From a virus, in the IMG/VR virus record IMGVR_UViG_3300013114_000583, positions 75,835 to 139,834 of that record: 64,000 bases of DNA; one strand, 5' to 3'. A program made the position numbers and the translations under genes. The notes beneath the pieces were generated by a model. The model searched no databases, had not been told where the DNA came from, and was given only the letters and a program-made list of their open reading frames with translations. Below are positions 1,459-57,707 of this stretch, in pieces (positions within the stretch are counted from its first letter, which is position 1; each line of letters begins with the position of its first letter).

Positions 1459-3626
1459 ATACCAAGATTCCAGTCATATAGAATCTCGCGGCGTCGGACG
1501 AGGGCGTAACCGTGATAAGGCAATGAGGGAAAATGTATCATTGCGCCGGCATCATCCCCCTCTTCTTCTTCTTCTTCTTGGCGGTTGTTGATACAGGCAG
1601 CCTCTTCAATGGCTTCCGTAATTGTATCTGTGATCTGCTGAGCATGCTGAATGCCAAAACCAGCCAATCCGTCAGAGTGCACCGCGCCGAAATCGATGAG
1701 TGGTTGATAGCTCCAGCTATTTTGAGGATTACCAATTATAAATACCATTCCATTCGCATGAGCCATGGCGCTAGCTGCAGCATGATTGTTAAACTCGGCG
1801 CCTTGCGCTTGCTCATCCCCAATGACAATAACTATGCGATGAGTGTATTCGCGGAGATCGACCTCCCACGCATCTTCGATACCCTGAATTTGTGCCGCTG
1901 GGCGGTTAGTGCTCCATAGAATGTTATCGTCGATGCCATCGTGATCCCAGTCAATTCTATCATCGGTAAAGAATTTTCCAATTGCATCTAATGTGTTCTC
2001 GGTCGAGCCCCCCTGGTTGATTGTGCCTGCTCGCAGATTTAGTCTCAAAGTATTGACAGCATTAGCCATATCTTCAATGGGCACTACTGGTGGATCTTCT
2101 ACGCCGGGGACGCAAGTGTCCCCAGGGTAGAACAAGTAAGGATCTGGCATCTCATCGTTGCCAACCACGGCTAACATATAACACACATCCACTACACCAT
2201 CATTGAATAACCTTTGTACTGAATTTCGGGTAGCATCGAATGCGATACCTAGCTCTCCCTGGTCCATGGATCCAGAGACATCCACCACCATCATAACTGC
2301 TACGCTGCCCTGTAAGAAATCTTCGTCTGCTAGGCCATCACAATCATCATCTTCTTCATTGCATCTCTCTACACCGGGGCGAATTTCTTGCTGACAGTCA
2401 AAATACCCATACTGCATTACGCCTTGAGCATCGCGGCGGGATTCGCAAAATGCGGCACCAAGGCGGCATTCGCCAGCAACATATTGGGGGCCATCTTCGC
2501 GTTGTGCATATGTTAATACCTCGTTTGTAAGTAAATCTGTGGAGCATAACATTGACAACGGGCCGCCATCCGGGCCTTCATCAATGAAACCATCACAATC
2601 TTCATCCGCGCCGTTGCACCTCTCTGGCTGAGGGACGTAATCTGGATGATCACAAGCACAGACCTCGTCAGCGAAGTCTTCGTCTATATTTCCATCACAA
2701 TCGTTGTCCATGAAATCACACAATTCACGCGGGAGGGCTCCGCATTCGCCACAAGCATTCAGTAGTCCCTCATCAATCTCGCCGTCGCAATTGTTATCAA
2801 CCCCATCACACACTTCGATAGGATCTTCTCCGCATTCTCCACAAACATTCAACAACCCCTCGTCGATGTTGCCGTCGCAGTCTTCGTCAAAATGACCGCC
2901 ATCACAGACTTCGACCGGGTCCGGGCCGCACTCACTACAGACGTTTAAAACCCCTTCGTCAGTTTGGCCATCGCAGTCATTGTCCCGCCCATCACACTCC
3001 TCAGCTGAAGGCAATATTTGCTGCTCACACGAGCCGTATTCATAATAAGTTTCAAGCCCGGCGTCGGTGGTCACGGATACTTCTCGACATACTGATATCC
3101 CAGACATACAGGTTCCCTCTTTCGAAGACCCAGGAGGCCCGGTATAACAGCTCACAAATAATATGGGGTTTTGAGGCTCAGCGAAGTTATCTGCTAAATT
3201 TTGATGGGACTCATTTATTTGTCCGTCACAGTCGTTATCTAATTCATCGCAAACCTCGGTTCTAGGAAAGTTAACAGGGTTACACTGAGACCAACTCGTT
3301 ACAAAGCAGGTTTTTTCTCCAACAGCACAGGGACCCAAAAGGCCAGGGAGTTGACACTCTTCTCTCAGACCCAATCGTTCACAAATTTGTGGTGGGGAGG
3401 CATCGAGCTGAGCATCGGGTGGGGATGCGTCCCATTGATACACCACTCTAGAATCTTGCGAAATTGTGCCGGCGGTGGAATCATCAACAATGGAATCGCG
3501 AGTGGTGATGAGGCGGGGTGGTGCATCCTGTTGCGCATCAACTAACAGGGGCGAAGAGGTGTTGTCAGAGCACGCCGTGGTGAGGGCCCAAACAGCGCAT
3601 AAGGCTATTTTTATTTTATGTTTCAT
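1449..3626 (-). CDS. Lipoprotein with Cys/Asp-rich 'CDGxDNDCDGxxDE' repeats and a C-terminal vWA (MIDAS) domain
   Basis: Signal peptide with lipobox (..ALTTA-C19); about 7 repeats of ExCD/NxxDxDCDGxxDE; vWA MIDAS 'VVDVSGSM', 'GGSTENTLDAI' and 'IVIVIGDE'. Confidence 0.8.
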   Translation of the reverse strand: MKHKIKIALCAVWALTTACSDNTSSPLLVDAQQDAPPRLITTRDSIVDDSTAGTISQDSRVVYQWDASPPDAQLDASPPQICERLGLREECQLPGLLGPCAVGEKTCFVTSWSQCNPVNFPRTEVCDELDNDCDGQINESHQNLADNFAEPQNPILFVSCYTGPPGSSKEGTCMSGISVCREVSVTTDAGLETYYEYGSCEQQILPSAEECDGRDNDCDGQTDEGVLNVCSECGPDPVEVCDGGHFDEDCDGNIDEGLLNVCGECGEDPIEVCDGVDNNCDGEIDEGLLNACGECGALPRELCDFMDNDCDGNIDEDFADEVCACDHPDYVPQPERCNGADEDCDGFIDEGPDGGPLSMLCSTDLLTNEVLTYAQREDGPQYVAGECRLGAAFCESRRDAQGVMQYGYFDCQQEIRPGVERCNEEDDDCDGLADEDFLQGSVAVMMVVDVSGSMDQGELGIAFDATRNSVQRLFNDGVVDVCYMLAVVGNDEMPDPYLFYPGDTCVPGVEDPPVVPIEDMANAVNTLRLNLRAGTINQGGSTENTLDAIGKFFTDDRIDWDHDGIDDNILWSTNRPAAQIQGIEDAWEVDLREYTHRIVIVIGDEQAQGAEFNNHAAASAMAHANGMVFIIGNPQNSWSYQPLIDFGAVHSDGLAGFGIQHAQQITDTITEAIEEAACINNRQEEEEEEGDDAGAMIHFPSLPYHGYALVRRREILYDWNLGICL

Positions 3627-6806: not shown

Positions 6807-8179
6807 CCCTTTGATTCCTCCTTGTGTTCTTTGTAAAGGTCTTTTATTCTTTTTATCTTATCTCGTGCGCGCTGTCTTATATCCTGCTCTTGCTCCTCGC
6901 CCGTAAAAGGCTGGAGGACTTTTATTTTAACATTGCTGGTATCCATAAACACAGGATACACCAGTCCATCGGGCCCGTTTCGATTTTTTGCAATGAACAA
7001 CCGGCCACCATTCGTACTTTTATCCTCTATTGTTCTAGACAAAGAAAATATGAAATCAGCAACAAAGCATTTGTTAAATGCTTCGGAGATGGATTCCATT
7101 GTAATGACTTCAGCATTCAAACCAGATCGGTTTGTTTGAGAGGCCGTCCAAACAGGACACTCATAAATTTGGGATATCCCACGGAGCTCTTCATAAATAG
7201 TTTCTAACTGATGTCTCTTTTCTTCTTTTTTATAAGAAACAGGTTTTATTAGGTCCCCATAATCTACTATTATGACACCTGGGGAAATGCCTCGATTTTT
7301 CAACTTCTCCAGGTGCGATTTTAATGTCTGTATTGTCGCTGATCTTGTGGGATACTCTTTAACTATTAGGCGTCCCGGGATTTCTTTTATTTCTTCGTAT
7401 ATCTTCTCCTTTAGGGGTATTAAATCTTTAAGGTGAACGCCCGTGATGCAGCTATCATACCTAGAGGCAACAACGGTATCAGACAACTCTAAAGTATAAT
7501 GCACAACAGTTTTTCCACTCAACAAAGCTTGAGCGCCTAGATGCGTTAAAACCATGGATTTGCCGGCGCCAGTTGGGGCAATGACAACACCTAATTCTCC
7601 TCTCCCTAGGCCCCCCTTAAGCAGAGGATCAATGCGCGCCCAACCCGTAGAAACGGGATTCCTTGAAACCAGCTGGAACCTGGCTTCAAAATCTGTTATA
7701 TAATCGTACCCAAAATCATTTGACGTGCCTAAGTTAATGGCATCATTGATAACAGAAGCCACTTCGTCGAAAGAGGAGTTCTTTATCAGGTCCACTGATT
7801 TTATTAAAGCTTCTTTTAGTTTTTGTTTTTTACAGAAATCTAGTGATGTTCGCTTAATATAATCAGAATCATTTATTTCCCCGGAAGCAAGAACGCCAGC
7901 ATAGTAATCTCTCAGTCTGATTTTAATGGACTCAGGCTCGGACTCTAGCTCTGTCCTCAAGACCGACTTCATGATTGAAGTAGACGGGTGGACCGAATAT
8001 CTTTCCCGATAGTTCAAGATCCTTCTTATAAATACCTGTAAATATCTTAATTCAAGAAAGTTTATATCCAGAACCTCAAAAATCTGATCGGCAAATGATC
8101 GATCGACTAATATTAGGTGACACAAATTTTCTTGAAAAGACTTCCCAAATTTAGAAAAATCAATATGACCTTCTGACAT
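6803..8179 (-). CDS. Replicative DnaB-family helicase (gp41-like)
   Basis: Walker A 'APTGAGKS', 'YTLEL', 'IIVDYGDL', 'WTASQTNR', 'IAKNRNG'. Confidence 0.92.
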   Translation of the reverse strand: MSEGHIDFSKFGKSFQENLCHLILVDRSFADQIFEVLDINFLELRYLQVFIRRILNYRERYSVHPSTSIMKSVLRTELESEPESIKIRLRDYYAGVLASGEINDSDYIKRTSLDFCKKQKLKEALIKSVDLIKNSSFDEVASVINDAINLGTSNDFGYDYITDFEARFQLVSRNPVSTGWARIDPLLKGGLGRGELGVVIAPTGAGKSMVLTHLGAQALLSGKTVVHYTLELSDTVVASRYDSCITGVHLKDLIPLKEKIYEEIKEIPGRLIVKEYPTRSATIQTLKSHLEKLKNRGISPGVIIVDYGDLIKPVSYKKEEKRHQLETIYEELRGISQIYECPVWTASQTNRSGLNAEVITMESISEAFNKCFVADFIFSLSRTIEDKSTNGGRLFIAKNRNGPDGLVYPVFMDTSNVKIKVLQPFTGEEQEQDIRQRARDKIKRIKDLYKEHKEESKG

Positions 8180-21041: not shown

Positions 21042-21058
21042 AAATACCCCTATATTTA

Positions 21059-21066
21059 ATAATTAG
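21059..21066 (-). promoter_or_regulatory. Putative late promoter motif CTAATTAT
   Basis: In the short gap upstream of the tape measure gene; the same motif occurs upstream of other structural genes. Confidence 0.55.
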
Positions 21067-22789: not shown

Positions 22790-25700
22790 TTAATCCTCAA
22801 ATGCAGCACCAGTATTGGTAATGATGAAATCTATCGCGATAAATTCTATAGAGCGCGCTGGCTTGAGAAATATCTTGGCATACATTATGTTTCTATCAAC
22901 CAAATCAGGTGTCGTCGTAGTCTTATCTAGTATTACCTTAAAATCGGTAAGACCGTATCCTTGTTTCACTCGATCCAAGAACGGAGTAACTTGAGCTAAG
23001 AACCTATCCCAAGTTGACTGAACATTCTGATCAAACAAGATTCTATTTGCAATTCTAGACACCTCTTTCTTGACATAAATTAAAAGGCGCCTGACGTTTA
23101 TCCTGTCTAAAGCAGATCTCGTTGTCTGAAGTGTCTTTTGACCAAAAACCACAATCCCTTCCGATGGGAAAGTCGCAATGGGATTTATATTAGCCTCATA
23201 AAGATCATCTCTCTGTTTCGATGAGAGTCTTTCCGTTACGCTAATAACGGGGAGACCTGCGGAGCCCTCTGTGAGGCCGCCGCGATTGAATCCCGCAGGA
23301 GCGAACCAGAGAGCTGCTCTTCTTTCTGTATTAGCGAAAACCCCAAGAGCTATAACAGAGGGGGGCACCCATACTAGAGAGTCCGTAATCTCATCATAAA
23401 TCTTAAGCCACGGATAGTAAGTACACCCATAACTAGAGTTTATACCTCTTTGCGTAAATGTCTCCGCAACGCTCTTAACTCCCGAACCAATGCGATCCTT
23501 AAAATCGGCATGTTTGTGTTCCTGAGGTGGATCGAAAACATCAGGCAAGTCAATCACTGCTAAAGAATCAGCTCTTGCTTCACAATTCCTGATCAAACTA
23601 GTTGTTAAAGTCTCATCAGTCAAGCCTGGAATGGCCATCAAATTAGCTTCAACCACTTCTGCATCAGCCACTGAATCAATAGCGCGCTTTACCGAAGCAT
23701 ACTCGTAGCTTGCCCGGGCATCTCCGGCTGCAGCCTCAATTTCACGATTATTAAACGGCTCCGACTCGGTTATGTCAACCCCGTCATAGCCTCCATAAAG
23801 AGGAGATGTGAATTTATTTATCCCGAATTCATTTAGAAGTTTAATCTCTCCTTCTAACGCTGTGGCGGAGTTTCCAGCTTTATAGGACCCAGATTCATAA
23901 TAAGCTACATTCCCGTTTGAACCAGATGTAACAATATCATCCATTGTGAAAACCCAAGACCATTCAGTTCCGCCGCTATAGTCTGCGTCCCATTTATCCT
24001 TGCCAAAGTCAGCAGCGCGAGAGCGAACGAGATCCACATAACCATCATCATAACGCGTTGAAGAGGAGCCTCGAACAGTTTGGAGGCCAAAATAAGCCTT
24101 TGTGGGATCAATAATACCACCATCTGAAGCAGAGTGTCGAAGCATTGTATGCAGAACACCAACTTTCATCTTGGCTGCTGTGTTCTTTCGCCTAGTTGCA
24201 CCGATGCCGGATTCCTCATCTGCGGCGAAAGTCGGATTAGAAGCTGAGAGCCAATAATCGCCGTGTGCAGCATTTATATCTATATCACCAAGCCAGGCCG
24301 CACCTGGGTCTGGGTCTGCGGCGACGCCAAATGTGACATCTGCTCCTTCGAAGGTTTGCGACATCGTCTCCAACACTGGGGGGCCAAAAACCCCGAATGG
24401 TATGAGAGAGGCAGGATGAAAATTTTGATCAACAGTCGAGTTCATTTCAATCCTGATATATCTAGACATATTAGGGTAATTACCATAATGCTTATATCTA
24501 TTTTCAGACAAGCTCCATTCCTGTTTTATATCCCCAATCTTTCTGGCCACATAATCACCAGAATACGGATTCAAATTACAATTTGAAAATCGCTCGACTA
24601 TCTGAACAGCGTTATCAGAATCTTTGGCTCTTCGAAGTACAACACTGAAAGAACCATAAGGATTTGTACCCCCCTTTGGTGGTGGCCTAATATCTGTAAT
24701 AGAAACTTTAAAGTCCCTATTGTTTGACTCACCTTCGTTAAGAGATGCAAACCTAAACAACTTTTGTGCCAAGTTAGGATCAAATGAGCCAGTAGAGTCA
24801 GTCCATTGCGAAAAGAACCACCCAGTTTTTGCACCCTGTACAGGATATCTCCAGTCTCCCAGCGTCTTTGAACCATTTGACAAAGGAGCTACGAAGGCAA
24901 AAGCCTCATCGCCGGTGGTCGCGGCGCCAAAAACATCCCTTGTAAGGGCGTGTTCATAGGTTTCCCCAAGCCAGTAAACATCGCCATCCTCTGTAATACT
25001 CGTATTTGTCAGAACTGGATTTGTATTCAAAACTTTTCTAATAAACTTCTTGGATGTTGTGTCGAAAGAAATAGGCACCACTTTATTGTCTCCGTGAGAC
25101 TGGTTGATAACCAACTCAAACTCAGGATTTTTCAAAGAGCCGGCGGCTGATATTGCAAGATTGGCAGAAGATGTCAACACTGTGCCAGCGCCAACAGTTT
25201 CACCAAGGACAGTCCCTTGAAGTGTGAAGTCAACTGCGTTATCGGTACCTTCAGGATTTGTGTAAAGGGCTGCGGCCAGCGATGCGTTAAAATCAGGACC
25301 CGTACCACCTGAGAACTTAGTAGTTGCAGTGGTGGACCCAGAAGCGTACACTCGAACTGTTGGATGCACTGTCGTGCCATTCGAGGCGAAACACTCTACT
25401 GTCAAATCGTTACCTGCGTACCCACCAAGTGAAGAACTAAGCACAAAGCGCGAGCCGGCGGCTGCGGCGCCGTCTTTCTCTAGAGCCGAGGCGCCGAATC
25501 CAAGTGCAAGGCCGTTCTCGGCGTCGGCGGTGCCAGTATAGTTAAGCGCTTGCTCTACTCGCTCCATAATAGCTTCCTGATCGGCTGCGCCGTTAAGACC
25601 AATGATGTAAGGGTCCTGATTCGTTCCGGCTCCACACGCGCCGTCGGGGTTGCCGTTAACATTGAGCCCGCCGCGGCAATCGGCCTTCGGGGCGCCGACG

Positions 25701-26269
25701 TCAAATCGAAATTCAACCTTTGTTGAAGATTTTCCGCCCTCTATTCTTATCCACTCATCAGCAGCGAATCCACCAGCGGCTTCTTTATCTATAACAACGC
25801 TTGGCCGAACACTACCAGTGGGAGTTCTGTAGCCTACAAACAATCCCCAAGCTGTTTCTAGCGTGGTGCCGCCGGGGCCGTTATTTGAAGCAGCCCAGCC
25901 TGCGGCACCGCCAGGGCCCTCTGCGGACGAGGCCAAAGCATCATCATCCTCAACACCCAAAAGTCTAACAAAATTAACAGGAGAACTATTTCGCAAATAC
26001 GCCTGTACAGCATAGCCAGCATACGTCGGGGCAAGGTATCCATTTCCTTCGCGCCAGGTATCATCTCCTAAGCCACCTGCTAGTGGGGCTCCAAAAATCT
26101 CAATAAATTCTGAAAAAGACTCGACCCTAACTGGTTTTAAAGCCGGGCCTCGCTCTGATCTTCCTATTATTACTGGACCTACGTCATCTGACTGCTTTGG
26201 TAATTGTGAGTTATCTATTTCGTTTAAGAAAACTCCTGGTGAAACAAATTTAAACTTCTTTTCCGACAT
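22790..26269 (-). CDS. Tail sheath protein (gp18-like) with large insertions
   Basis: N-terminal 'FVSPGVFLNEIDNS', 'GP'; C-terminal 'WFAPAGFNRG', 'INPIATF', 'FGQKTL', 'LDRINVRRL', 'KPARSIEFIAIDF'. Confidence 0.95.
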   Translation of the reverse strand: MSEKKFKFVSPGVFLNEIDNSQLPKQSDDVGPVIIGRSERGPALKPVRVESFSEFIEIFGAPLAGGLGDDTWREGNGYLAPTYAGYAVQAYLRNSSPVNFVRLLGVEDDDALASSAEGPGGAAGWAASNNGPGGTTLETAWGLFVGYRTPTGSVRPSVVIDKEAAGGFAADEWIRIEGGKSSTKVEFRFDVGAPKADCRGGLNVNGNPDGACGAGTNQDPYIIGLNGAADQEAIMERVEQALNYTGTADAENGLALGFGASALEKDGAAAAGSRFVLSSSLGGYAGNDLTVECFASNGTTVHPTVRVYASGSTTATTKFSGGTGPDFNASLAAALYTNPEGTDNAVDFTLQGTVLGETVGAGTVLTSSANLAISAAGSLKNPEFELVINQSHGDNKVVPISFDTTSKKFIRKVLNTNPVLTNTSITEDGDVYWLGETYEHALTRDVFGAATTGDEAFAFVAPLSNGSKTLGDWRYPVQGAKTGWFFSQWTDSTGSFDPNLAQKLFRFASLNEGESNNRDFKVSITDIRPPPKGGTNPYGSFSVVLRRAKDSDNAVQIVERFSNCNLNPYSGDYVARKIGDIKQEWSLSENRYKHYGNYPNMSRYIRIEMNSTVDQNFHPASLIPFGVFGPPVLETMSQTFEGADVTFGVAADPDPGAAWLGDIDINAAHGDYWLSASNPTFAADEESGIGATRRKNTAAKMKVGVLHTMLRHSASDGGIIDPTKAYFGLQTVRGSSSTRYDDGYVDLVRSRAADFGKDKWDADYSGGTEWSWVFTMDDIVTSGSNGNVAYYESGSYKAGNSATALEGEIKLLNEFGINKFTSPLYGGYDGVDITESEPFNNREIEAAAGDARASYEYASVKRAIDSVADAEVVEANLMAIPGLTDETLTTSLIRNCEARADSLAVIDLPDVFDPPQEHKHADFKDRIGSGVKSVAETFTQRGINSSYGCTYYPWLKIYDEITDSLVWVPPSVIALGVFANTERRAALWFAPAGFNRGGLTEGSAGLPVISVTERLSSKQRDDLYEANINPIATFPSEGIVVFGQKTLQTTRSALDRINVRRLLIYVKKEVSRIANRILFDQNVQSTWDRFLAQVTPFLDRVKQGYGLTDFKVILDKTTTTPDLVDRNIMYAKIFLKPARSIEFIAIDFIITNTGAAFED

Positions 26270-26333
26270 TGTTATGGTTCTCCTCTTTAAATTAAAAATC
26301 TCTCGCGATTTAAAATTATAATTTAAGCTCTTA

Positions 26334-26341
26334 ATAATTAG
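26334..26341 (-). promoter_or_regulatory. Putative late promoter motif CTAATTAT
   Basis: Between the terminator and the sheath start. Confidence 0.55.
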
Positions 26342-26373: not shown

Positions 26374-26403
26374 AAAGAAAAGCCCGGGCAGAAGTGCCCG
26401 GGC
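26374..26403 (-). terminator. Rho-independent terminator after the fibre gene
   Basis: Stem gcccgggca/tgcccgggc with a 4-nt loop (26382-26403), followed by a T-rich tract on the minus strand. Confidence 0.85.
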
Positions 26404-26436
26404 CATAAGGTGAGTGTATATTAAGCTACATTTTGA

Positions 26437-29400
26437 TTAATTAGCTTTCATATATTTAATCATCAAGTAGTCATCGGAATCGACACCCTCTTCCAAAACA
26501 ACTGTCGCAGCACCAGCACTTGCGCTATGAGTATAGGTATAATCATAATCACTACTGTTGCTCTCAGTCGCTTCAATGAGCAGCTGACCATTCAAGAAAA
26601 CCATGACAGATCCGGCGCCGGATACGGCACCTGCAATAGTCGCAGTTTTGGAAGAGTTGGTTAGAGCTGCAGCATTTCCTGCGCTGGAGGCCATGAAGAC
26701 CTCTTGCGTTTCCTGGGTGCCAATAAAAGTTACCAACTGAGCAAGCGTCATTGTTTTGGCTGCACTACCATCACCACCATCCTGAACCAGTATGGTATCA
26801 GTGGCGATGGTGGCGGCAGCGGCGGTCAATGCGGCACCAGCGGTGGTTGTAAGCGCACCGCATGCAACAGTACCAAGGCCCGAAACGTTACCGCTGTCGT
26901 CAAAGGTATAGTTACCATCGGAAAAGGTGCCACTAATCGTCAAATTGCGGCCGCCGGTGATGTCACCATTGCTGTCCAAGACCATTGCCTTGCTAACTGC
27001 AGCAGTACCCGGAGTAACACCGTCAAGAACACCAATTTCTGCAGTAGTGATCGTGGTCGAATCAAGCGTCAAGCTAGTATCGCCTGTGATAGTGCCTGTC
27101 ACAGCCAAGTTACCTGACGAGGTGATAGCACCACAGCCAATTGTTCCGATTGTAGCAATATTCTTACTAGCGTCGAGAACGACAGCCTTGCTAGCTGCAG
27201 CAGTACCCGGAGTAACACTGTCAAGAACGCCGATCTCAGCAGTAGTGATCGTCGTTGTATCAAGCGTCAAGCTAGTATCGCCTGTGATAGTGCCTGTCAC
27301 AGCCAAGTTACCTGACGAGGTGATAGCACCGCAACCGACAGTGCCAAGGCCCGAAACGTTACCGCTGTCGTCAAAGGTATAGTTACCATCAGACAAAGTA
27401 CCAGAAATTGTCACGTTTCTCAAGCCAGAGGCGATGTCAGCGTTGCCGTCCAAGACGAGGGCCTTGTTGGCAGCACCAGCACCATTAGTAATGCCATCCA
27501 ATTTCTCAAGATCAGATTCGCTCATAGAAGCAGAGCCGATAATGAAAGAACCAACAGCAGTTATAGAACCAGCAGTGTTCAAGTCACCATCTGAATTCAA
27601 GCGCATTTTCTCTGTGGCTGCTTCAGATTTGCCGGTTGCAAAAACCAGATCAGTATCATTGGAAGAGGAGGAAAAAGCGCCATCTGCTTCTGCATAAATT
27701 GATGCAGCAACCAAAATAGCGTCAGTGCCCGCGGAATCCAACGGAGCTTGGAAATCAATCTGACCAAGCTTGTTCCCATCGACAACTGTTGTTTCAGCAG
27801 TTGATAGAAGAAGCTTTCCTGGTGTGGCTGCACCACCTCTGAGTTCTAACTCATCAGCGGACTGATCCCATTCAAGGTAAGCTCCTGATGTATCACCGAA
27901 CATTTTCACGTCAACACCTGTGTCGTTGGCACCGAAAGTTGCAGCTGCCGTAAATGTCTTCGCTCCCGTAAATGTCTGAGTCTCGCTCAAGTGAGCAGTA
28001 TCAGCATCCAAATAAGCCGAAGCAACCGCAGTGCCGTTCCAAACACCAGAGGCAATCGTACCAACGCTAGTCAGACTAGAACCGACAACACTGGAGCCAA
28101 GTGTAGTTGCACTAAGAACAGAAGCATTGTTGATCTTGTAGACCTTGGTGCTGGCAAGACTCATGTTCTCTGAAGAAGTCCAGTTGTCCCCAGTATTTGC
28201 CCATTGAAAAGTTTTATCACTGTCTGAAGATTTGAGGGTAATACCGCCACCATCAACAGAAGCATCATCGCCTTCAGAACCACTGGGAGAATGTGCAAGA
28301 TCGATGTTCTTGTCATCCAGCTGGATGGTGGTCGAGTTAACTGTTGTGGTTGTTCCACTAATTGTTAAATCACCTCCTATAGTAACTCCGCCGGCAAAAG
28401 TTGCCAACTTATCACTATCCAGCCTCAATACTTCAGATTGTGAAGCATTGCCGTCTGTTGTATACATAACTAATGCTGCACCGTTCTCGGTGCCCGACCA
28501 GGTGGCATCAGCGATAGCTTCAATTCTTGCACCTACTGTCATGGTACTCGAAGTGTCCTCTGCGGCAGCGAACTCAATTACACCTAGCCGATGATCGTCG
28601 GCTAAAGGCTGTCCATCATTAGATGCCAACCGTATGTATCCACCCTCTGTGGCACTACTTGAGGTTGAATCTGTGACTGTAATACCAGGGGTATCGATTG
28701 TCACTGCAGTCGAAGCATTGATATCAACAGTTGGAGCTGTCATATCAAGAGTGGTGCCTGAATTAATTTCCAAGTGACCGTTAGAGGAGGCAACAATGTT
28801 TTCTTCGCCTCCACCGTCGTGAAATGATAGCTTAGAAGTAAGACCAAGAATCAGCTCATCAGCGGACTCATCCCACATCATGAATTCACCGGTAGTATTA
28901 CCGAAGAATTTGACATCATACCCATCTGTGTCAGCGCCGACAGTAAGCGTTCCGTCCAAGTCTACGGCGCCATCAATATCAACAGCGTCAAGATTAGTTG
29001 TGCCATCAACATCAATATCGCCAGAGATATCCAGATTCGCAAAGACAGAAGTTCCGGTTGAGGTGATAGCACCACAGCCAATTGTTCCGATTGTAGCAAT
29101 ATTCTTGCTTCCGTCGAGAACGACAGCCTTGCTAGCTGCAGCAGCACCTGCAGTAACAGAATCAAGAACGCCGATTTCAGCAGTAGTGATCGTCGTTGTA
29201 TCAAGCGTCAAGCTAGTATCGCCTGTGATAGTGCCTGTCACAGCCAAGTTACCTGACGAGGTGATTGCACCACAACCAACAGTGCCGATAGACGCAATAT
29301 TACCACTACCGTCCAAGACAAGAGCCTTACTCGCAGCAGCGGTACCATTTGTGATGCCATCAAGCTTTTCCAAGTCAGCCTCGCTCATGGCAGCAGAGCC

Positions 29401-31533
29401 TATAGTAAGGCTGGTTGCACAAGTCACGGTACCGCTGACGGTTAAGTTGCCGCCAGAAGAAAGCGACATCGTTTCTGCTGCAGCCGCGCTAGAAGCAGTC
29501 TTAAAAGAAAGTTTCGTCGCGTTGCTGGACGATGAGAAGTCACCCTCTGAAACAGCCTCAATACCAGCTGCAACCAAGATTGCGTCCGTGCCGGCCTCTT
29601 CGGCTGGTGCCTGGAAGTTGATGACACCCAATTTATCATTGGCCGCAATATCGTCGTCTCCGGTCTGTAGGGTCATTGTGAAGTATTTGTCATCAGATGT
29701 CGAGTCGTGCAGGAAAGTAAGACCGCTATCTTCGACGTGAGTCACTTTAATCTCATTGTGGTCACCAAAACTCATGACCGCTCCGTCGGCCAGGAATAAA
29801 TCGCTAAATTGTAGCGAATTGGTTCCCAGAGCAGCCCCATCCTGGGCGTCAGGCACAAAAGCAGTGGTGGCTGTAATGGATGTGCCCTGAATTGTGCCTG
29901 CACTAACCATCGCCTCCACGCTAAGCGAGTTACCACTATATGTAAACCCGGAATCCGAGGTCAATCCAGAGGAACCATCATTAATTTGCACGTAACCAGT
30001 GCTTCCGTGTACAGAAAGACCTGCACCAACTAACTCCGAAACTGTAACTGTTCTCATTCTTGCATCAGTACCGCTGATGGCAACATCATATATTGCAACT
30101 AAATCAGCGGTTGCCGGGCCGCCACTCAGGGCATCAAATTTACTAATATCAACTGTAAGTTCTCCTGTAGAGCCAGTCACATTCAAGCCGCCCGCTGAGC
30201 CGGTGGCCAATTGTCTAGCACTAAATTTTGTTCTCGCCATTTCTTCATCCTCCTCTTCTAGGGTTGTACCAACTAAACTCCAACTGTACGTACTTGTTGC
30301 CGCAGTAGTAATAGCAGCACTAACTGGATCTGCCGTTGAGGGCCGATCATTTCCACCAGTAAATGGCGTAGCTCCACTAGCAGTTATTAACACTGGCTTA
30401 GTGGAAGTTTGATAATCACTTGCGGCGCCGGTCTCGACACCGCTCGCCAGAGTGACAACTATCGTACCATCTGTACTAATAGACCCCGCTCCGGATTTTG
30501 TAACACTAGTAAACTCACCTGTATCGTTGATAGCATCATAAATCTCATTAAAGACATCTCTCCAATCTGTTATGGAAAAACCGGTTAAATCAATTGTTGT
30601 GGTATCTTCGGTCCAAGTGTAACCAGAAGTAGGCGCAGAATAACCTGTCCCAGAAAGAACAAATCTTCTACCCCCACCAGCAGTTGGAAGCTGAATACCC
30701 CTGTACCCACTCGAAGAGTTAGTGTTACCAGCTGATGGCTGATAGTTACTCCACTCACTTGCATTGTATTCACTACTCCCTGCTGCAGTTGTCTTTACAC
30801 TACCTGAACTAAACGTTAACGTAATTACACCATTTGAAGCCGGCGCTGTATAATCAACCGTACCAGTGCCTGTTGCAGCCATCGAACCACTTGTAACAGT
30901 AGGGTGCTTTGCTAATTGATCACCATTATAAGTGTAGCTATAAACACCAGGATCTTTATTGCCGTTATATATCTTAAAATAATTAAGATACAATGTTTCA
31001 GCGCTTACAGTTTTAGTGGCAGCTAATGTTACAGAAGTGTTAGACCCAGCAGTAGCTGAATATTCAGTTGTACTAGTGCTTGTTCCAGAACCAGTTGGGT
31101 GCAAAGAATATTGAGCATAAATCTTAGCTGTTTCACTATTTGCAGCATCCGTAACTAGCGTAAAAGTAAATGCCGGTGATACTGTCGTTGTATCGCCACC
31201 CCCAGAAGGGTTGCCCGCATCCAAGTGAATGCCCCTATAGCCAACATCATAAACATAATTGCCGTTAGCTTCGAAAACATCACTAGGCTTCATGCCACTT
31301 GTAGAGGCATTTGACCTATCTGGGGCCCAGACACTAATAATAGCGCCACTTATCACAAAGTAAACATAATGATCTTCATCCATCGTAACGGATTGAAAAG
31401 TTGATGAAAGATCATTGCCGCTAAGCAGCGCTGTTAAATCACTAAAAGATGCATATGCCGATGTATACTTATAGGCTTTTACTGCAGCTGATTGGCCTGA
31501 CTTCAAACCTAAATAAAAAGTTCTATTTGCCAT
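26437..31533 (-). CDS. Giant modular tail fibre / virion fibre protein
   Basis: 1698 aa, rich in G/S/T/A, with repeated fibre modules ('EIGVLDSVTxGTAAASKAVVLD', 'LGxIxFQAP..GTDAILVAA'); C-terminal 'VMVFLNGQL..DY' domain; strong SD AAGGAGG. Confidence 0.75.
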   Translation of the reverse strand: MANRTFYLGLKSGQSAAVKAYKYTSAYASFSDLTALLSGNDLSSTFQSVTMDEDHYVYFVISGAIISVWAPDRSNASTSGMKPSDVFEANGNYVYDVGYRGIHLDAGNPSGGGDTTTVSPAFTFTLVTDAANSETAKIYAQYSLHPTGSGTSTSTTEYSATAGSNTSVTLAATKTVSAETLYLNYFKIYNGNKDPGVYSYTYNGDQLAKHPTVTSGSMAATGTGTVDYTAPASNGVITLTFSSGSVKTTAAGSSEYNASEWSNYQPSAGNTNSSSGYRGIQLPTAGGGRRFVLSGTGYSAPTSGYTWTEDTTTIDLTGFSITDWRDVFNEIYDAINDTGEFTSVTKSGAGSISTDGTIVVTLASGVETGAASDYQTSTKPVLITASGATPFTGGNDRPSTADPVSAAITTAATSTYSWSLVGTTLEEEDEEMARTKFSARQLATGSAGGLNVTGSTGELTVDISKFDALSGGPATADLVAIYDVAISGTDARMRTVTVSELVGAGLSVHGSTGYVQINDGSSGLTSDSGFTYSGNSLSVEAMVSAGTIQGTSITATTAFVPDAQDGAALGTNSLQFSDLFLADGAVMSFGDHNEIKVTHVEDSGLTFLHDSTSDDKYFTMTLQTGDDDIAANDKLGVINFQAPAEEAGTDAILVAAGIEAVSEGDFSSSSNATKLSFKTASSAAAAETMSLSSGGNLTVSGTVTCATSLTIGSAAMSEADLEKLDGITNGTAAASKALVLDGSGNIASIGTVGCGAITSSGNLAVTGTITGDTSLTLDTTTITTAEIGVLDSVTAGAAAASKAVVLDGSKNIATIGTIGCGAITSTGTSVFANLDISGDIDVDGTTNLDAVDIDGAVDLDGTLTVGADTDGYDVKFFGNTTGEFMMWDESADELILGLTSKLSFHDGGGEENIVASSNGHLEINSGTTLDMTAPTVDINASTAVTIDTPGITVTDSTSSSATEGGYIRLASNDGQPLADDHRLGVIEFAAAEDTSSTMTVGARIEAIADATWSGTENGAALVMYTTDGNASQSEVLRLDSDKLATFAGGVTIGGDLTISGTTTTVNSTTIQLDDKNIDLAHSPSGSEGDDASVDGGGITLKSSDSDKTFQWANTGDNWTSSENMSLASTKVYKINNASVLSATTLGSSVVGSSLTSVGTIASGVWNGTAVASAYLDADTAHLSETQTFTGAKTFTAAATFGANDTGVDVKMFGDTSGAYLEWDQSADELELRGGAATPGKLLLSTAETTVVDGNKLGQIDFQAPLDSAGTDAILVAASIYAEADGAFSSSSNDTDLVFATGKSEAATEKMRLNSDGDLNTAGSITAVGSFIIGSASMSESDLEKLDGITNGAGAANKALVLDGNADIASGLRNVTISGTLSDGNYTFDDSGNVSGLGTVGCGAITSSGNLAVTGTITGDTSLTLDTTTITTAEIGVLDSVTPGTAAASKAVVLDASKNIATIGTIGCGAITSSGNLAVTGTITGDTSLTLDSTTITTAEIGVLDGVTPGTAAVSKAMVLDSNGDITGGRNLTISGTFSDGNYTFDDSGNVSGLGTVACGALTTTAGAALTAAAATIATDTILVQDGGDGSAAKTMTLAQLVTFIGTQETQEVFMASSAGNAAALTNSSKTATIAGAVSGAGSVMVFLNGQLLIEATESNSSDYDYTYTHSASAGAATVVLEEGVDSDDYLMIKYMKAN
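27119..29271. repeat. Near-identical in-frame DNA repeats inside the fibre gene
   Basis: 27119-27330 matches 29060-29271 (offset 1941 nt); 27061-27132 is identical to 27259-27330 (offset 198); 26873-26919 is identical to 27344-27390 (offset 471). All offsets are multiples of 3. Confidence 0.85.
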
Positions 31534-31581
31534 GTGTTTTATCCTCCTTTAAAATCTTAAAGGACTAATAGTAACAAAATA

Positions 31582-31707
31582 AAATGAATTAAAGAGGAAT
31601 AAATGAATTAAAGAGGAATAAATGAATTAAAGAGGAATAAATGAATTAAAGAGGAATAAATGAACTAAAGAGGAATAAATGAATTAAAGAGGAATAAATG
31701 AATTAAA
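31582..31707. repeat. 19-nt tandem repeat AAATGAATTAAAGAGGAAT x6.6
   Basis: Units start at 31582, 31601, 31620, 31639, 31658 (one T>C), 31677, with a partial unit at 31696; intergenic, no spacers. Confidence 0.97.
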
Positions 31708-31714
31708 ATAAAAA

Positions 31715-32149
31715 CTATTCTTTAACAAAAACAATTTTTTCTCCCGGAAGTTCGGGAATCTTAATAATGTACCCAGACTCGGGTACGCCTTTTTCTATTC
31801 TTACAGAGTCTAACAAGCCAAAAAGCCTTTTTCTGTTTTCTTCAGATATTCTAATTAGAGCAGACTTTTGTGTTTCTGCCACAATAATAAAATCAGCCAA
31901 TTGTAATTTGGCGTTAAGGAAAGCCTCTCTTGCTGCTATGATGGCCACAGTTTCTTCATCCGTGCACTCAACATGCGAAGGAAAAATATCAGATCGAGCC
32001 TCTGCTTCTTCAACTTCTTCAGTTTCCTCAACTTCTTCAGTCTCTTCAACTTCAGACTCAGAAAGAAGTTTTTTTATAACTTCAGCATCAGGCTCTTCTC
32101 CTTCACCCATGTCATTTACTAAATTTTTTAATTTGTCTAATAAACTCAT
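31715..32149 (-). CDS. Acidic hypothetical protein
   Basis: 144-aa ORF with SD GGAG and internal EEVEET repeats. Confidence 0.7.
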   Translation of the reverse strand: MSLLDKLKNLVNDMGEGEEPDAEVIKKLLSESEVEETEEVEETEEVEEAEARSDIFPSHVECTDEETVAIIAAREAFLNAKLQLADFIIVAETQKSALIRISEENRKRLFGLLDSVRIEKGVPESGYIIKIPELPGEKIVFVKE

Positions 32150-32159
32150 TTTTTCTCTC

Positions 32160-32387
32160 CTATGAAAATAAAATCTTTTTTAAATTTCTAACATTATTGT
32201 CAAATTTGCAAAAATCGGAATCCAAAAATTCCAATGCTTCTGACTGGGCTGAGGACTCCGGATCTTTGAACTCAAAATAAAACTTTCCTGTCGGACCTCG
32301 ATTGCAAACCATTAATTTGTAACCCTTTAATTGTAAATAGGCAGCTATCCCTATATCACTTGTTGTAAACGTGGCGGGGGCCATCAA
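32160..32387 (-). CDS. Small DUF5659-like protein
   Basis: 'FTTSDIGIAAYLQLKGYKL..FYFEF' pattern; SD AAGGAG. Confidence 0.6.
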   Translation of the reverse strand: MMAPATFTTSDIGIAAYLQLKGYKLMVCNRGPTGKFYFEFKDPESSAQSEALEFLDSDFCKFDNNVRNLKKILFS

Positions 32388-32411
32388 ACTCTCTCCTTGT
32401 TCCTAAGTATA

Positions 32412-32419
32412 ATAACTAG
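32412..32419 (-). promoter_or_regulatory. Putative late promoter motif CTAGTTAT
   Basis: Intergenic, upstream of the 75-aa gene. Confidence 0.45.
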
Positions 32420-35797: not shown

Positions 35798-35814
35798 TAA
35801 AAACCCTCCTGATA

Positions 35815-35822
35815 GTAATTAG
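35815..35822 (-). promoter_or_regulatory. Putative late promoter motif CTAATTAC
   Basis: Between the capsid-gene terminator and the gp13 SD. Confidence 0.5.
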
Positions 35823-35830
35823 GAGTTGGA

Positions 35831-35862
35831 AAAAGAAAACCCCGCCTGACATGCAGGCGGGG
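35831..35862 (-). terminator. Rho-independent terminator after the major capsid gene
   Basis: Stem ccccgcctg/caggcgggg (35840-35862) followed by ttttctttt on the minus strand. Confidence 0.88.
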
Positions 35863-35889
35863 CTTAAAACTATGGGTTATTTATCAATA

Positions 35890-37953
35890 TTAACCCAAGA
35901 GGTCCTGAACAACGACAATGCCGTACAAATCAGGACGAACCATCTTCTTCGCATAACGGGTCATGACACCTTTACGCGGCACGAAGTCTTCCGTGCCGAA
36001 GATAGTGGGAGTGGTCTGTAGTGGTACATATGGGGCGTACACAAAACCGCTCTCAAGGAAGGAACTTCCCTTGCGACCAATCAAAATCACATTACGCAAG
36101 AAGTAAGGATCGACGTAAACGTCAAATTTCTTGCTGAGCGATCCGACATTAACTGCACCGATCTGGCCCTTCTCCTGATCATGGGTTGCACGAGCGCGAA
36201 ATCCGCTTGTGAACTCAAGAATGTTTGCAATCTCGGGAGAGCAAACAACGAAGTTAGCGCCGCCTCGGAGTGTCTTTCTGTGGATCTGAGCACTCACGTC
36301 GTTGATCGTTTCAATGAGTGTCTCATACCACTCAGAAACGGTACCCGTGAAGTCAGGTCCAGCCGTCCCATTAACAGTAAGGTCTGTGCCCGCTACGCGG
36401 TCAAGGAACTTACCAGGGTGACGACTCCAATGCATCGTCTGGGCCGTCGCGCCTCTAACAAGGTCACCAAGGATCTCCTGGTCGATTTCGAGAGCAATCT
36501 GCTCCGAAAGGATTCCGGTGAGCTCAACCTCAGCATCCAAGTTGTGATAAGCATTGAGATCCTGAGCGAGCTCTGGAGTCCACTTAGCCTTCAGCTTCTT
36601 GGTCTGTGCGGTCACTGCGACACTGTCGACCTTAATGTCGATCTCGGGGATGACATTCTTGCCGGCCTCTCCTTGGCCACTTCCGCGCTTGCCGGTACCA
36701 GGTGATGGCTCTTCAAGGCCCCACTGGTCAACACCAACGAGAGAACCAAGTCCGACACCGTCCTTAAGGCTATCCTTAATGGGCGCAGCAAGCTCAAGAG
36801 AAACCTGCGAATCGTCCCTAAAGATGGCTTCCAGAAGAGCTTTCTTTTCTGCGGCAGTCATATCCCCCATAATCGGAGTACCAGCCTTCTCCAAGGCTTC
36901 GACTTCGCCCATGGTATCGGTCTTGAGGGTGGTCAGCGTCTTATCACCGGTGTTATTAACCGACTGTAAGGCAAAGACAAGTTGCGAAATACCGTTAACC
37001 TGTCTAAGGCCATTATCAGTTGTCAAGTCAAATCGAGTATGCCTTCTCACCAATCGCACGCGGACGACGAGATCGTCGTCGTTGTCGGACTGGTGGGCAT
37101 GCGCTGCAGCGGCGATGTCGTTTCCGCCGTTAAGGACAAGGACAAGATCTCCGTTTTTTGGATCATGATGTGTTCCCCAAGTGGAGGTGTCTTCGACACC
37201 CACGTTACCCGGGAATGCGCCATCGCCGTTGGCTTTGGCAATCTCGACAGCCTGGGGCATGCCTGCATCAATTTGGGAGACGATCGTTGCGATCTCGTCG
37301 GTACCAGCAGCTGTGCGTGCGGCAATGTTATCTGTTCCTGCAACGGTCACGACAAGGCAACCAACGCCCTTTAAATCCGCATCAAAGTCAAGAACTGCAG
37401 CTGCGCCGCCATCTCCGTAACCAGCGATAGAAACGCCGTCGGATCCGACGTCACAATTTTGGATGATGGAAGCTGTTGCTGCGGTATAACCAGTGGATAA
37501 GTTATAAAACCCACCCTGATCATCACGACCAGAGAGGCTAATACCACCAGTCAATTCGCTAGCAACGCGTCCACCGCCATACAGCGATTCGCCTGCGGCT
37601 CCTTGACGACCTCCATCGGCTTTTGTAAAGTCGAGGAAGAAAATGAGTCCCGATGGGAGGCTCATTGGTTGAACTGAAACAAGTTCATTTGCGATCAATC
37701 CGCCGAATACACGACGAACTATCGGGAAAGCAACTGCAGCGAAGCCTTCGACATCACCTGCAGCCATCGAGGAAGCTTCACGAAGAAGTTCCTTGGCCTG
37801 ATTCTCTAAGAGAACGGCCATATTCTGTCGGGTTCGATCATCGCCAATACCTTCAAGAAGTCCGGTCTTTTCCCACTTGGTAAGAATAGCCTGGCCTTCT
37901 CGGCCGACATCGCGATGAACGATACCTTCAGTAAGTTTTTCTAAAACTGACAT
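35890..37953 (-). CDS. Major capsid protein, T4 gp23-like, with a large central insertion
   Basis: 'LLENQ', 'PIVRR..LIANELVSVQPM..PSGLIF', 'TKKLKAKWTPELAQDL..H.LDAEVEL..EIDQEI', 'YAPYVPL', 'GVMTRY'. Confidence 0.96.
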   Translation of the reverse strand: MSVLEKLTEGIVHRDVGREGQAILTKWEKTGLLEGIGDDRTRQNMAVLLENQAKELLREASSMAAGDVEGFAAVAFPIVRRVFGGLIANELVSVQPMSLPSGLIFFLDFTKADGGRQGAAGESLYGGGRVASELTGGISLSGRDDQGGFYNLSTGYTAATASIIQNCDVGSDGVSIAGYGDGGAAAVLDFDADLKGVGCLVVTVAGTDNIAARTAAGTDEIATIVSQIDAGMPQAVEIAKANGDGAFPGNVGVEDTSTWGTHHDPKNGDLVLVLNGGNDIAAAAHAHQSDNDDDLVVRVRLVRRHTRFDLTTDNGLRQVNGISQLVFALQSVNNTGDKTLTTLKTDTMGEVEALEKAGTPIMGDMTAAEKKALLEAIFRDDSQVSLELAAPIKDSLKDGVGLGSLVGVDQWGLEEPSPGTGKRGSGQGEAGKNVIPEIDIKVDSVAVTAQTKKLKAKWTPELAQDLNAYHNLDAEVELTGILSEQIALEIDQEILGDLVRGATAQTMHWSRHPGKFLDRVAGTDLTVNGTAGPDFTGTVSEWYETLIETINDVSAQIHRKTLRGGANFVVCSPEIANILEFTSGFRARATHDQEKGQIGAVNVGSLSKKFDVYVDPYFLRNVILIGRKGSSFLESGFVYAPYVPLQTTPTIFGTEDFVPRKGVMTRYAKKMVRPDLYGIVVVQDLLG

Positions 37954-39171: not shown

Positions 39172-39207
39172 TTAGATGCTCCTATACATACACATAAAGG
39201 TTCACTA

Positions 39208-39215
39208 ATAAATAG
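39208..39215 (-). promoter_or_regulatory. Putative late promoter motif CTATTTAT
   Basis: Intergenic, upstream of the scaffold-capsid genes. Confidence 0.55.
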
Positions 39216-39257: not shown

Positions 39258-39710
39258 CTAGGGAACCGGTGTTAGAGTCCCGTCACCCTTTAGTCGAGGA
39301 TATTTATCATAGGCTGGACCCTTAATACCCGTCAATGTGGCGATGATATTGCAAACAAGGCCGGCTTCGACCTGGACACGGATTCCTTTTGCTCTTACCG
39401 GCAAGGTCATTGTCATTCCAGGATAAACGTGAAAAGGATTTGTTTGTGCATCAGAATCAAAGCTAAAGATGCACTTATTTACTTCCGTACCGTCAGGGTC
39501 GGCCGCGGCGGTGCGCGCCCCATCAACATGATGAACTGCTATTGTTATGTCCCTACTCAATGAATCGAATGTTTTAAAAGCATCCGCCGCGGCACCAACG
39601 ATATTATAAACCTGGGGTATGCCTGATATAATATACATCCCTGTAGAATTGACACCAGGCGTATGTTGCCTCATGAAAGTCGTGCTACCTGTTAAAAATT
39701 GTCCTGCCAT
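39258..39710 (-). CDS. Hypothetical protein, possibly a virion beta-rich protein
   Basis: 150-aa ORF coupled to the bS21 stop (TGATG overlap). Confidence 0.6.
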   Translation of the reverse strand: MAGQFLTGSTTFMRQHTPGVNSTGMYIISGIPQVYNIVGAAADAFKTFDSLSRDITIAVHHVDGARTAAADPDGTEVNKCIFSFDSDAQTNPFHVYPGMTMTLPVRAKGIRVQVEAGLVCNIIATLTGIKGPAYDKYPRLKGDGTLTPVP

Positions 39711-39943
39711 CAGTTATACCTCTTTACTTTTTCTTTTAATTTGTTTGTGTGCTCGCGAGCTTTTCTCAGTTTTTCTTTCTTTTTCATGCGTTTCTTTACG
39801 CTCTTTTTAGTGAAGCGCTGTCTCTCTCTAACTAGTTCTAAAATGCCAGATTTCTTCACTTTCTTCTTGAATTTTCGAATCATGACCTCAGGTGGGCCAT
39901 CTCTCTGTGTCACTTCTACATTCACTGGTGTTCTTCTGCCCAT
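39710..39943 (-). CDS. rpsU: Phage-encoded ribosomal protein bS21
   Basis: 77-aa highly basic protein; 'VEV..PEVMIRKFKKKVKKSGILELVRERQRFTKKSVKKRMKK' aligns by eye with the bS21 consensus (ALRRFK..G.L.E.R.R.yeKPS.kRk.K). Confidence 0.75.
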   Translation of the reverse strand: MGRRTPVNVEVTQRDGPPEVMIRKFKKKVKKSGILELVRERQRFTKKSVKKRMKKKEKLRKAREHTNKLKEKVKRYN

Positions 39944-57667: not shown

Positions 57668-57699
57668 ATTACATAATACTCCTTATATAATTATACACA

Positions 57700-57707
57700 A
57701 TAAATAG
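57700..57707 (-). promoter_or_regulatory. Putative late promoter motif CTATTTAT
   Basis: Intergenic, upstream of the 412-aa gene. Confidence 0.55.

Follow-up and report, generated by a model that had tools for sequence, protein, structure and literature searches.

A conserved, strain-variable 19-nt leader repeat ahead of a giant gene in an uncultured marine T4-like phage

The phage studied here carries a leader repeat that is real, conserved, and strain-variable. The repeat is a tandem array of a 19-nt unit that occupies positions 31582–31707 of the window, which is the whole stretch of 64,000 nt of DNA analyzed here (bases 75835–139834 of a record of 139,834 bp). As judged by comparison with related contigs, the array is a true within-species variable number tandem repeat (VNTR) that is lineage-specific and persists, with its unit under constraint, in two lineages. 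Our preferred explanation, held tentatively and short of even confidence, is that the array acts in cis as an mRNA leader element, in which it would provide a single-stranded platform or an alternative anti-Shine–Dalgarno (anti-SD) partner before a ribosome binding site (RBS) that is predicted to be sequestered.

RESULTS

Sequence and location of the array

The original prediction described an array of 6.6 copies of a 19-nt unit. Both the sequence and Tandem Repeats Finder confirm this description: the program reports a period of 19, 6.6 copies, and a score of 245 for the unit AAATGAATTAAAGAGGAAT. The head-to-tail, near-identical units (98% matches over 6.6 copies) are those of a minisatellite, or VNTR. 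No other array in the 64-kb window scores higher than 82, and the 19-nt array is the top-scoring tandem repeat of the entire record. A search of the 139.8-kb record yielded no further occurrence of the unit outside the array.

On the − strand, which corresponds to the mRNA, the unit reads AUUCAUUUAUUCCUCUUUA. This strand is 79% pyrimidine and is free of G except for one variant base. Several sequence features that had been noted earlier are indeed present. Each junction on the + strand reads AAAGAGG-AATAA-ATG-AAT-TAA, the sole substitution in the array is an AAT>AAC change in unit 5, and the − strand unit contains AUUCCUCUUUAA. The array is located in the leader of a giant gene (26437..31533, −), as was also proposed, with its 3′ end 30 nt upstream of UUAAAGGAGGAU, the RBS of this gene, and 48 nt upstream of the ATG at 31533.

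Gene context and the late operon

All large open reading frames (ORFs) of the window are on the − strand. A gp23-like capsid gene (35890–37953, −) is followed by a gp13-like neck gene, two unknown genes, and a gene for a 75-aa DUF5659 protein (32160..32387, −; PF18903, E 2.8e-06), a gene order that is shared in loci L008–L011 and L022. The next ORF encodes an acidic protein of 144 aa (31715..32149, −), and L008 carries a homolog at the same place (32% identity, E 9e-18). The stop codon of the 144-aa gene is 7 nt ahead of the array and 181 nt ahead of the ATG of the giant gene. Downstream of the giant gene are the sheath gene (22790–26269, −) and then tube and baseplate genes. Within the 144-aa gene, an 18-nt (9-nt) coding repeat at 32005–32053 specifies an (E-E-V/T)n acidic tract, which is also found in L022.

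The 10-nt motif CTAnTTAyTA occurs 13 times on the gene strand versus once on the other strand, and 10 of the 13 copies are 11–72 nt upstream of a start codon, with most copies at a distance of 23–72 nt. Copies on the − strand include those at 21057–21066, 26332–26341, 32410–32419, 35813–35822, 39206–39215, and 57698–57707. The motif is also present at homologous sites in L008, which has 50% protein identity. CTAnTTAyTA is probably the late promoter of this phage group, and the copy CTAGTTATTA upstream of the DUF5659 gene (32410..32419, −) is probably that of the operon, with the DUF5659 gene as its first gene. The candidate late promoter differs from that of T4, which is TATAAATA.

No copy of CTAnTTAyTA is present between 32410 and the ATG of the giant gene, and no terminator or promoter-like site was found on the − strand in the stretch that separates the 144-aa gene from the giant gene. 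A strong hairpin resembling an intrinsic terminator (10 pairs, 8 of them G–C, then a T run) lies 3′ of the giant gene at 26381..26404 (−). Because the motif lies upstream of the DUF5659 gene, no copy follows it, and the terminator-like hairpin is past the giant gene, the array probably belongs to the intercistronic RNA of a late operon that comprises the DUF5659 gene, the 144-aa gene, the array, the 1698-aa gene, and the terminator. Transcription through the array is inferred from this arrangement. We also considered the unit as a tandem late promoter and rejected this possibility, since the strand-specific motif of the genome is CTAnTTAyTA and the unit, TTCATTTATTCC, shares only its ATTTATT core.

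The phage encodes a bS21 gene (39710–39943, −; PF01165, E 4.6e-11), as reported earlier. A tmRNA gene with the tag ANDDVEIFEDFALAA is encoded outside the window (G000:C1:3496-3801), and five tRNA genes specify Met, Leu(UAA), Lys(UUU), Thr(UGU), and Arg(UCU). Together, the tmRNA, the five tRNAs, and bS21 constitute an unusually rich translation toolkit.

The 1698-aa protein

The giant gene is repeat-rich and of structural type. Residues 1–540 of its product are conserved (50% identity to P0002 over this region), and the C-terminus is variable. Searches of Pfam and PDB gave no match, none in the ESM Atlas was convincing, and the sole family match is to phrog_30158, a PHROG family of no assigned function. 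The original prediction named this gene a fiber gene. Its position, its conserved N-terminus and variable C-terminus, and its internal repeats suggest that the protein is fiber-like, an assignment that the searches above did not confirm.

The internal repeats of the giant gene are tandem 198-nt (66-aa) units at about 26990–27540 and 29060–29400 of the window and at 7204–7745 of L022. The L022 gene has one extra 198-nt unit and encodes 1764 rather than 1698 aa, and therefore the length of the giant protein also varies by slippage.

Copy number and conservation among relatives

Nine syntenic loci were obtained via protein look-ups and one metagenome scan. In other searches, blastn gave no similar sequence among GenBank phages, single-protein patterns and alignment in IMG/VR recovered nothing similar except the record that contains the window, repeat-pattern searches of IMG/VR and GTDB genomes had no matches, and a search with the 144-aa protein found no homolog. 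P0003 and P0004, which share only an internal domain with the giant protein and are not syntenic, were rejected.

The closest relative, L022, is 99.6% identical to the window over 7.5 kb at the nucleotide level, and the difference is exactly one 19-nt unit (5.6 versus 6.6). Unit 3 of the L022 array carries the same G variant as the window. A second lineage is formed by L014 and L017, which have about 70% nt identity to the window in the flanks, with values of 60%–73%. The L017 array consists of 4.6 units, begins at the stop codon of the upstream gene, and has an A>G change in two units; this contig has 74% protein identity to the window in the giant N-terminus. L014 (75% protein identity, giant N-terminus) has 3.6 units at the same site. 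The flanks of L014 and L017 are 96%–100% identical at the nucleotide level, yet their arrays differ by a unit. Thus, the predicted variability in copy number is borne out by four contigs with 6.6, 5.6, 4.6, and 3.6 units. These counts come from short-read assemblies and the exact copy numbers are uncertain. The array is present in four independent assemblies (window, L022, L014, and L017) and therefore is not an assembly artifact, which had been a concern.

The unit of L014 and L017, ATTCATTTATTCCTTTTTA, is identical to the window unit at 18 of 19 positions. Given the identity of the flanks, the probability of such a match is 0.001–0.02. Across the four contigs, three positions of the unit vary: one is synonymous, one lies in the spacer, and one flanks the SD. 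From these alignments, the unit is judged to be under stronger conservation than its flanks. It had been asked whether the minigene pattern of the + strand or the anti-SD is the conserved property. The minigene pattern is indeed kept in all units of the four contigs, but any constraint on the unit gives the same result.

At the syntenic site, the array is present in L022, L014, and L017 and absent from L015, L018, L019, L008, and L016. The latter loci (L018 at 58%, L019 at 61%, and L008 and L016 at 50% protein identity in the giant N-terminus) lack the array and have unique spacers of 121–141 nt. Only two independent lineages carry an array, and collapse to a single copy is seen in none of the four array contigs.

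When the leaders are aligned, the last array units fall opposite one similar stretch in the phages without an array. This suggests that a U-rich leader element, perhaps present as one copy in those relatives, was amplified in tandem. Because the stretch has low sequence complexity, we give such a proto-unit little weight. A 74-kb IMG/VR contig (L021) has a 27-nt exact match (3519–3545) to 1.4 units of the L014-type repeat. On its purine strand, this match supplies the SD and ATG of an Erv1/Alr gene, which is divergent from a thioredoxin gene. This contig has no tblastx matches to the window phage and is unrelated; the match was treated as a coincidence or an unrelated start region.

The main rival to a leader element with a single-stranded platform is near-neutral slippage. 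According to this explanation, one functional leader element has been amplified, and the extra copies are idle and remain alike through concerted evolution together with selection on the element. Differences in unit number between near-identical strains (6.6 versus 5.6, and 4.6 versus 3.6) are as expected for such a repeat, as is the one-unit change of the 198-nt repeat in the giant gene of the same phage (1698 versus 1764 aa). Relatives at 50%–61% protein identity do without the array, and none of the properties modeled below is dependent on copy number. However, both lineages have retained at least three units while diverging to about 70% nt identity, the consensus of the unit has remained 18/19 identical, above the flanks, and none of the four contigs has collapsed to one copy. 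We consider near-neutral slippage a serious rival, though somewhat less probable than the leader element.

The conservation of the unit could instead reflect a protein-binding site. In this case, the array might function at the DNA level as an iteron-like, transcription factor, or bending locus for a phage or host protein. The 19-bp direct repeats fall within the 17–22 bp of replication iterons, the unit is conserved beyond its flanks, and T/A tracts recur every 9–10 bp. On the other side, the cumulative GC skew is monotonic with no inflection at the array, and the neighboring genes are structural with no initiator-type gene nearby. The array also sits inside a late structural operon, is missing in relatives, and has a unit that does not match CTAnTTAyTA. 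Binding sites of this kind would be an improbable explanation for the array.

Predicted structure of the leader

The SD of the giant gene is predicted to be buried by a local hairpin, and the array itself is predicted to be unstructured. This hairpin is the one robust structure of the leader. The hairpin, UCCUUUAA-GAUU-UUAAAGGA (31545..31564, −), is present in minimum free energy (MFE) structures and is predicted to pair GGA, the first three bases of the GGAGG SD core (31543–31547). The predicted cost of freeing this SD is 7.7–8.4 kcal/mol. For the complete start region (−16 to +3), the predicted opening cost is 10.4 kcal/mol, which ranks 6 of 118 (mean 5.6, sd 3.1). The corresponding predicted values for the sheath and capsid genes are 2.3 and 4.4 kcal/mol, respectively. 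Folded by itself, the spacer is predicted to have an MFE of 0.0 kcal/mol, and the entire leader folds less well than its shuffles (z +1.16). An Rfam search of the leader region returned only one sub-threshold match (E 0.12), which is outside the array. A search for the RegA family had no match, and neither did its control search.

An anti-SD/SD hairpin is predicted in seven of seven homologous leaders, with opening costs of 4.2–9.7 kcal/mol. The spacers of these leaders are 109–181 nt in length, 53%–62% U, and 1%–12% G, and they have little or no predicted structure. Among 32 same-strand intergenic regions of the genome, none exceeds the window leader in U content or has less G. Because the spacer composition and the SD-burying hairpin recur in all seven leaders, a long, U-rich, G-poor, and apparently unstructured spacer ahead of an RBS that is predicted to be buried is the conserved, family-wide trait. 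The array is one lineage's way to build such a spacer.

This arrangement resembles ribosome standby sites such as those of the MS2 coat gene and tisB, in which a stable, RBS-burying hairpin has a single-stranded tract directly 5′ of it (Sterk, Romilly and Wagner 2018, PMC5934652). Both elements, an RBS in a stable structure and an adjacent single-stranded tract, are predicted here. G-free tracts of CA or AU repeats work as standby sites in experiments (PMC5934652), and the array is likewise G-free. However, standby tracts saturate at 16–18 nt and are 5′ tails, whereas the candidate standby tracts described here are 69–126 nt in length and intercistronic.

Two precedents from T4 are also similar in part. 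The late genes e, soc, 49, and I-TevI of T4 have their SD in a local helix (PMC3014915), as is predicted for the late gene of this T4-like phage. For e/soc-type genes, a T4 late promoter inside the helix yields transcripts without the 5′ arm (PMC3014915). In contrast, no CTAnTTAyTA is in or near the hairpin described here, and every transcript should therefore carry the 5′ arm. The leader of T4 gene 32 is unstructured and A+U-rich, with repeated UUAA(A) motifs up to the RBS, and serves as a lattice for cooperative protein binding (PMC3014915). The leader studied here differs in that no 5′ pseudoknot was found, the downstream gene does not encode a ssDNA-binding protein, and the 19-nt unit is exact. 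Elsewhere in the genome, the leader of the gp13-like gene (35798–35889, −) has a copy of the upstream motif, CTAATTACTA, that overlaps an anti-SD CUCCU by the last two bases of CUCCU. This CUCCU can pair with the SD AGGAGG that follows, an arrangement that recalls T4 e/soc and is conserved in L008.

The composition of the array also invites an explanation based on Rho or RNase E, which follows from the preferences of rut sites and of RNase E. Rho loading could cause polarity on the giant gene, or cleavage by RNase E could let the giant-gene segment decay independently of the upstream cistrons. The arrays are 69–126 nt of untranslated RNA with 0%–1% G, 17%–21% C, and no predicted structure, and UC and CC dinucleotides are regularly spaced in this naked, G-free tract. 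Moreover, the next start site is predicted to be strongly occluded, so the transcript would stay ribosome-free. However, the spacers of array-less relatives contain only 8%–13% C, which means that the family does not conserve a rut-like composition. We judge that entry of either factor has little chance of being the function of the array.

Pairing between the array and start regions

The original prediction held that the anti-SD sequence of the unit pairs with the RBSs of the sheath and fiber genes. The sequence UUAAAGAGGA is indeed present at 26281–26290, ahead of the sheath ATG. However, when the pairing of the unit with 187 start regions is ranked, the sheath region is only 32nd and that of the giant gene is 42nd–54th, which does not sustain a specific pairing with either RBS. 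In these models, the unit complements start regions in general. The start region of L014 falls among the top 5 of 187, with an 18-bp helix.

A trans-acting anti-SD sponge, which would block the sheath RBS or other start regions and thereby set virion stoichiometry, could exploit the ten contiguous bases that are complementary to the sheath RBS. The duplex that would form is AU-rich with a stability of only −13 kcal/mol, the sheath start region is only 32nd of the 187 in the ranking, and this region is predicted to be among the most open in the genome. Such a sponge is highly improbable.

Because the unit is complementary to start regions, control of translation in cis, by pairing of the icaR-like kind, is a reasonable possibility. 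In the predicted ensemble, the array units compete with the arm of the local hairpin for the SD. In the MFE structures of L014 and L017, one unit pairs with the SD and AUG in an 18-bp helix with a 3-nt bulge. These results are consistent with the proposed anti-SD translation control, albeit in a weak and nonspecific form only.

The proposal that occlusion of the RBS is tuned by copy number fared poorly. The local hairpin already buries the SD, and in a natural series of 5′ truncations from 0 to 6.6 units, the window array adds 0.7 kcal/mol to the predicted cost of freeing it. In L014 and L017, the array adds 2.3–2.8 kcal/mol, and the effect saturates after one or two units.

No compensatory change between the unit and the start region was seen across the lineages. 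A window-type unit pairs with the L014 start region better than the L014 unit itself does; therefore, pairing strength has not been optimized and there is no sign of co-evolution. Where the units differ between lineages, a C opposite G is kept or the position is otherwise accommodated via wobble pairs, a pattern that pairing would allow but that does not count as evidence for pairing.

The antisense strand

Lambda bar minigenes and the CreT RNA toxins soak up ribosomes or tRNA. The purine-rich strand of the array resembles both in its repeated SD, AUG, single codon, and stop. It was proposed that an antisense RNA from the + strand soaks up ribosomes or tRNA-Asn; such an RNA would carry seven SD-AUG-AAU-UAA minigenes. 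In every unit of the four contigs, the SD, spacer, ATG, AAY, and TAA are intact. The best point for this proposal is that the window has + strand signals on both sides of the array: a σ70-like site that faces the array (TTGCCA-17-TAAAAT, 31527..31555, +; 10/12 matches) and a terminator-like hairpin 61 nt past it, inside the 144-aa gene (31768..31787, +).

These signals do not withstand comparison. Both are confined to this species: counterparts are lacking in L014 and L017, even though the array is kept. The −35-like hexamer follows necessarily from the Met-Ala-Asn codons that the giant gene conserves. The CTAnTTAyTA motif favors the − strand 13:1, the array is antisense to the late operon with no conserved means to transcribe the + strand, and the phage has no tRNA-Asn gene. 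Furthermore, the complement of any anti-SD tract resembles an SD.

The adjoining + strand ORF (31767–32165) was rejected as a gene. Rich in Ser, Thr, and Phe, it is a shadow frame of the gene for the acidic 144-aa protein. Across relatives, sense versus antisense alignment scores for this ORF are 257 versus 211, 162 versus 32, and 143 versus 19, and substitution patterns do not favor the + strand frame. We conclude that antisense minigenes are very unlikely.

DISCUSSION

The explanation that we prefer for the array is a leader element acting in cis on the giant gene. The array is a minisatellite, probably within the transcribed intercistronic leader of a late operon, and its RNA would form a G-free, structure-free, and pyrimidine-rich tract that ends 30 nt ahead of a conserved hairpin predicted to bury the SD. 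This single-stranded tract may set how frequently the occluded RBS of the giant gene is used, by offering 30S subunits and protein S1 a platform on which to land or stand by. As a secondary effect, the units might pair with the SD in place of the arm of the local hairpin, and in the second lineage they might pair with the AUG too. The number of units would change via replication slippage, with 3.6–6.6 units tolerated, and we claim no tuning role for this number.

Established systems provide precedents for these steps. Single-stranded tails beside a structured RBS raise translation by ribosome standby, with full effect at 16–18 nt (PMC5934652). Saturation at this length leaves the 126 nt and the multiplicity of units in the window unexplained. 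T4 genes e, soc, 49, and I-TevI supply examples of SD-sequestering helices, and gene 32 supplies one of an unstructured leader with repeats (PMC3014915). Further points against the leader element are that the array is present in two lineages only and that its complementarity is generic, with 42–54 of 187 start regions pairing at least as well as that of the giant gene itself.

The array also resembles the intergenic VNTRs and contingency repeats of bacteria, in which perfect head-to-tail units vary in number between near-identical strains. It is distinct from these repeats in its 19-nt units, its location in the leader of a phage late operon, and its lack of G on the mRNA. Slippage could make the array a heritable dial for how much of the giant fiber-like protein is produced, with the number of G-free anti-start-region units setting ribosome loading at the otherwise buried RBS or the access of Rho or RNase to the leader. 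We consider such a dial unlikely. If it were true, the phage population would have standing variation in virion decoration, and the array would be a viral contingency locus that operates at the level of translation.

Should the array be neutral, it would still be a strain marker for uncultured marine T4-like phages that encode bS21 and tmRNA. If instead translation is affected by the array, the phage would provide a natural case of a copy-number-variable leader repeat before a sequestered RBS, and would illustrate how a virus can adjust the amount of a very large, low-copy virion protein while its promoters are unchanged. The contigs with 0, 3.6, 4.6, 5.6, and 6.6 units would then constitute a natural series for the effect of long single-stranded tracts on initiation at structured sites.
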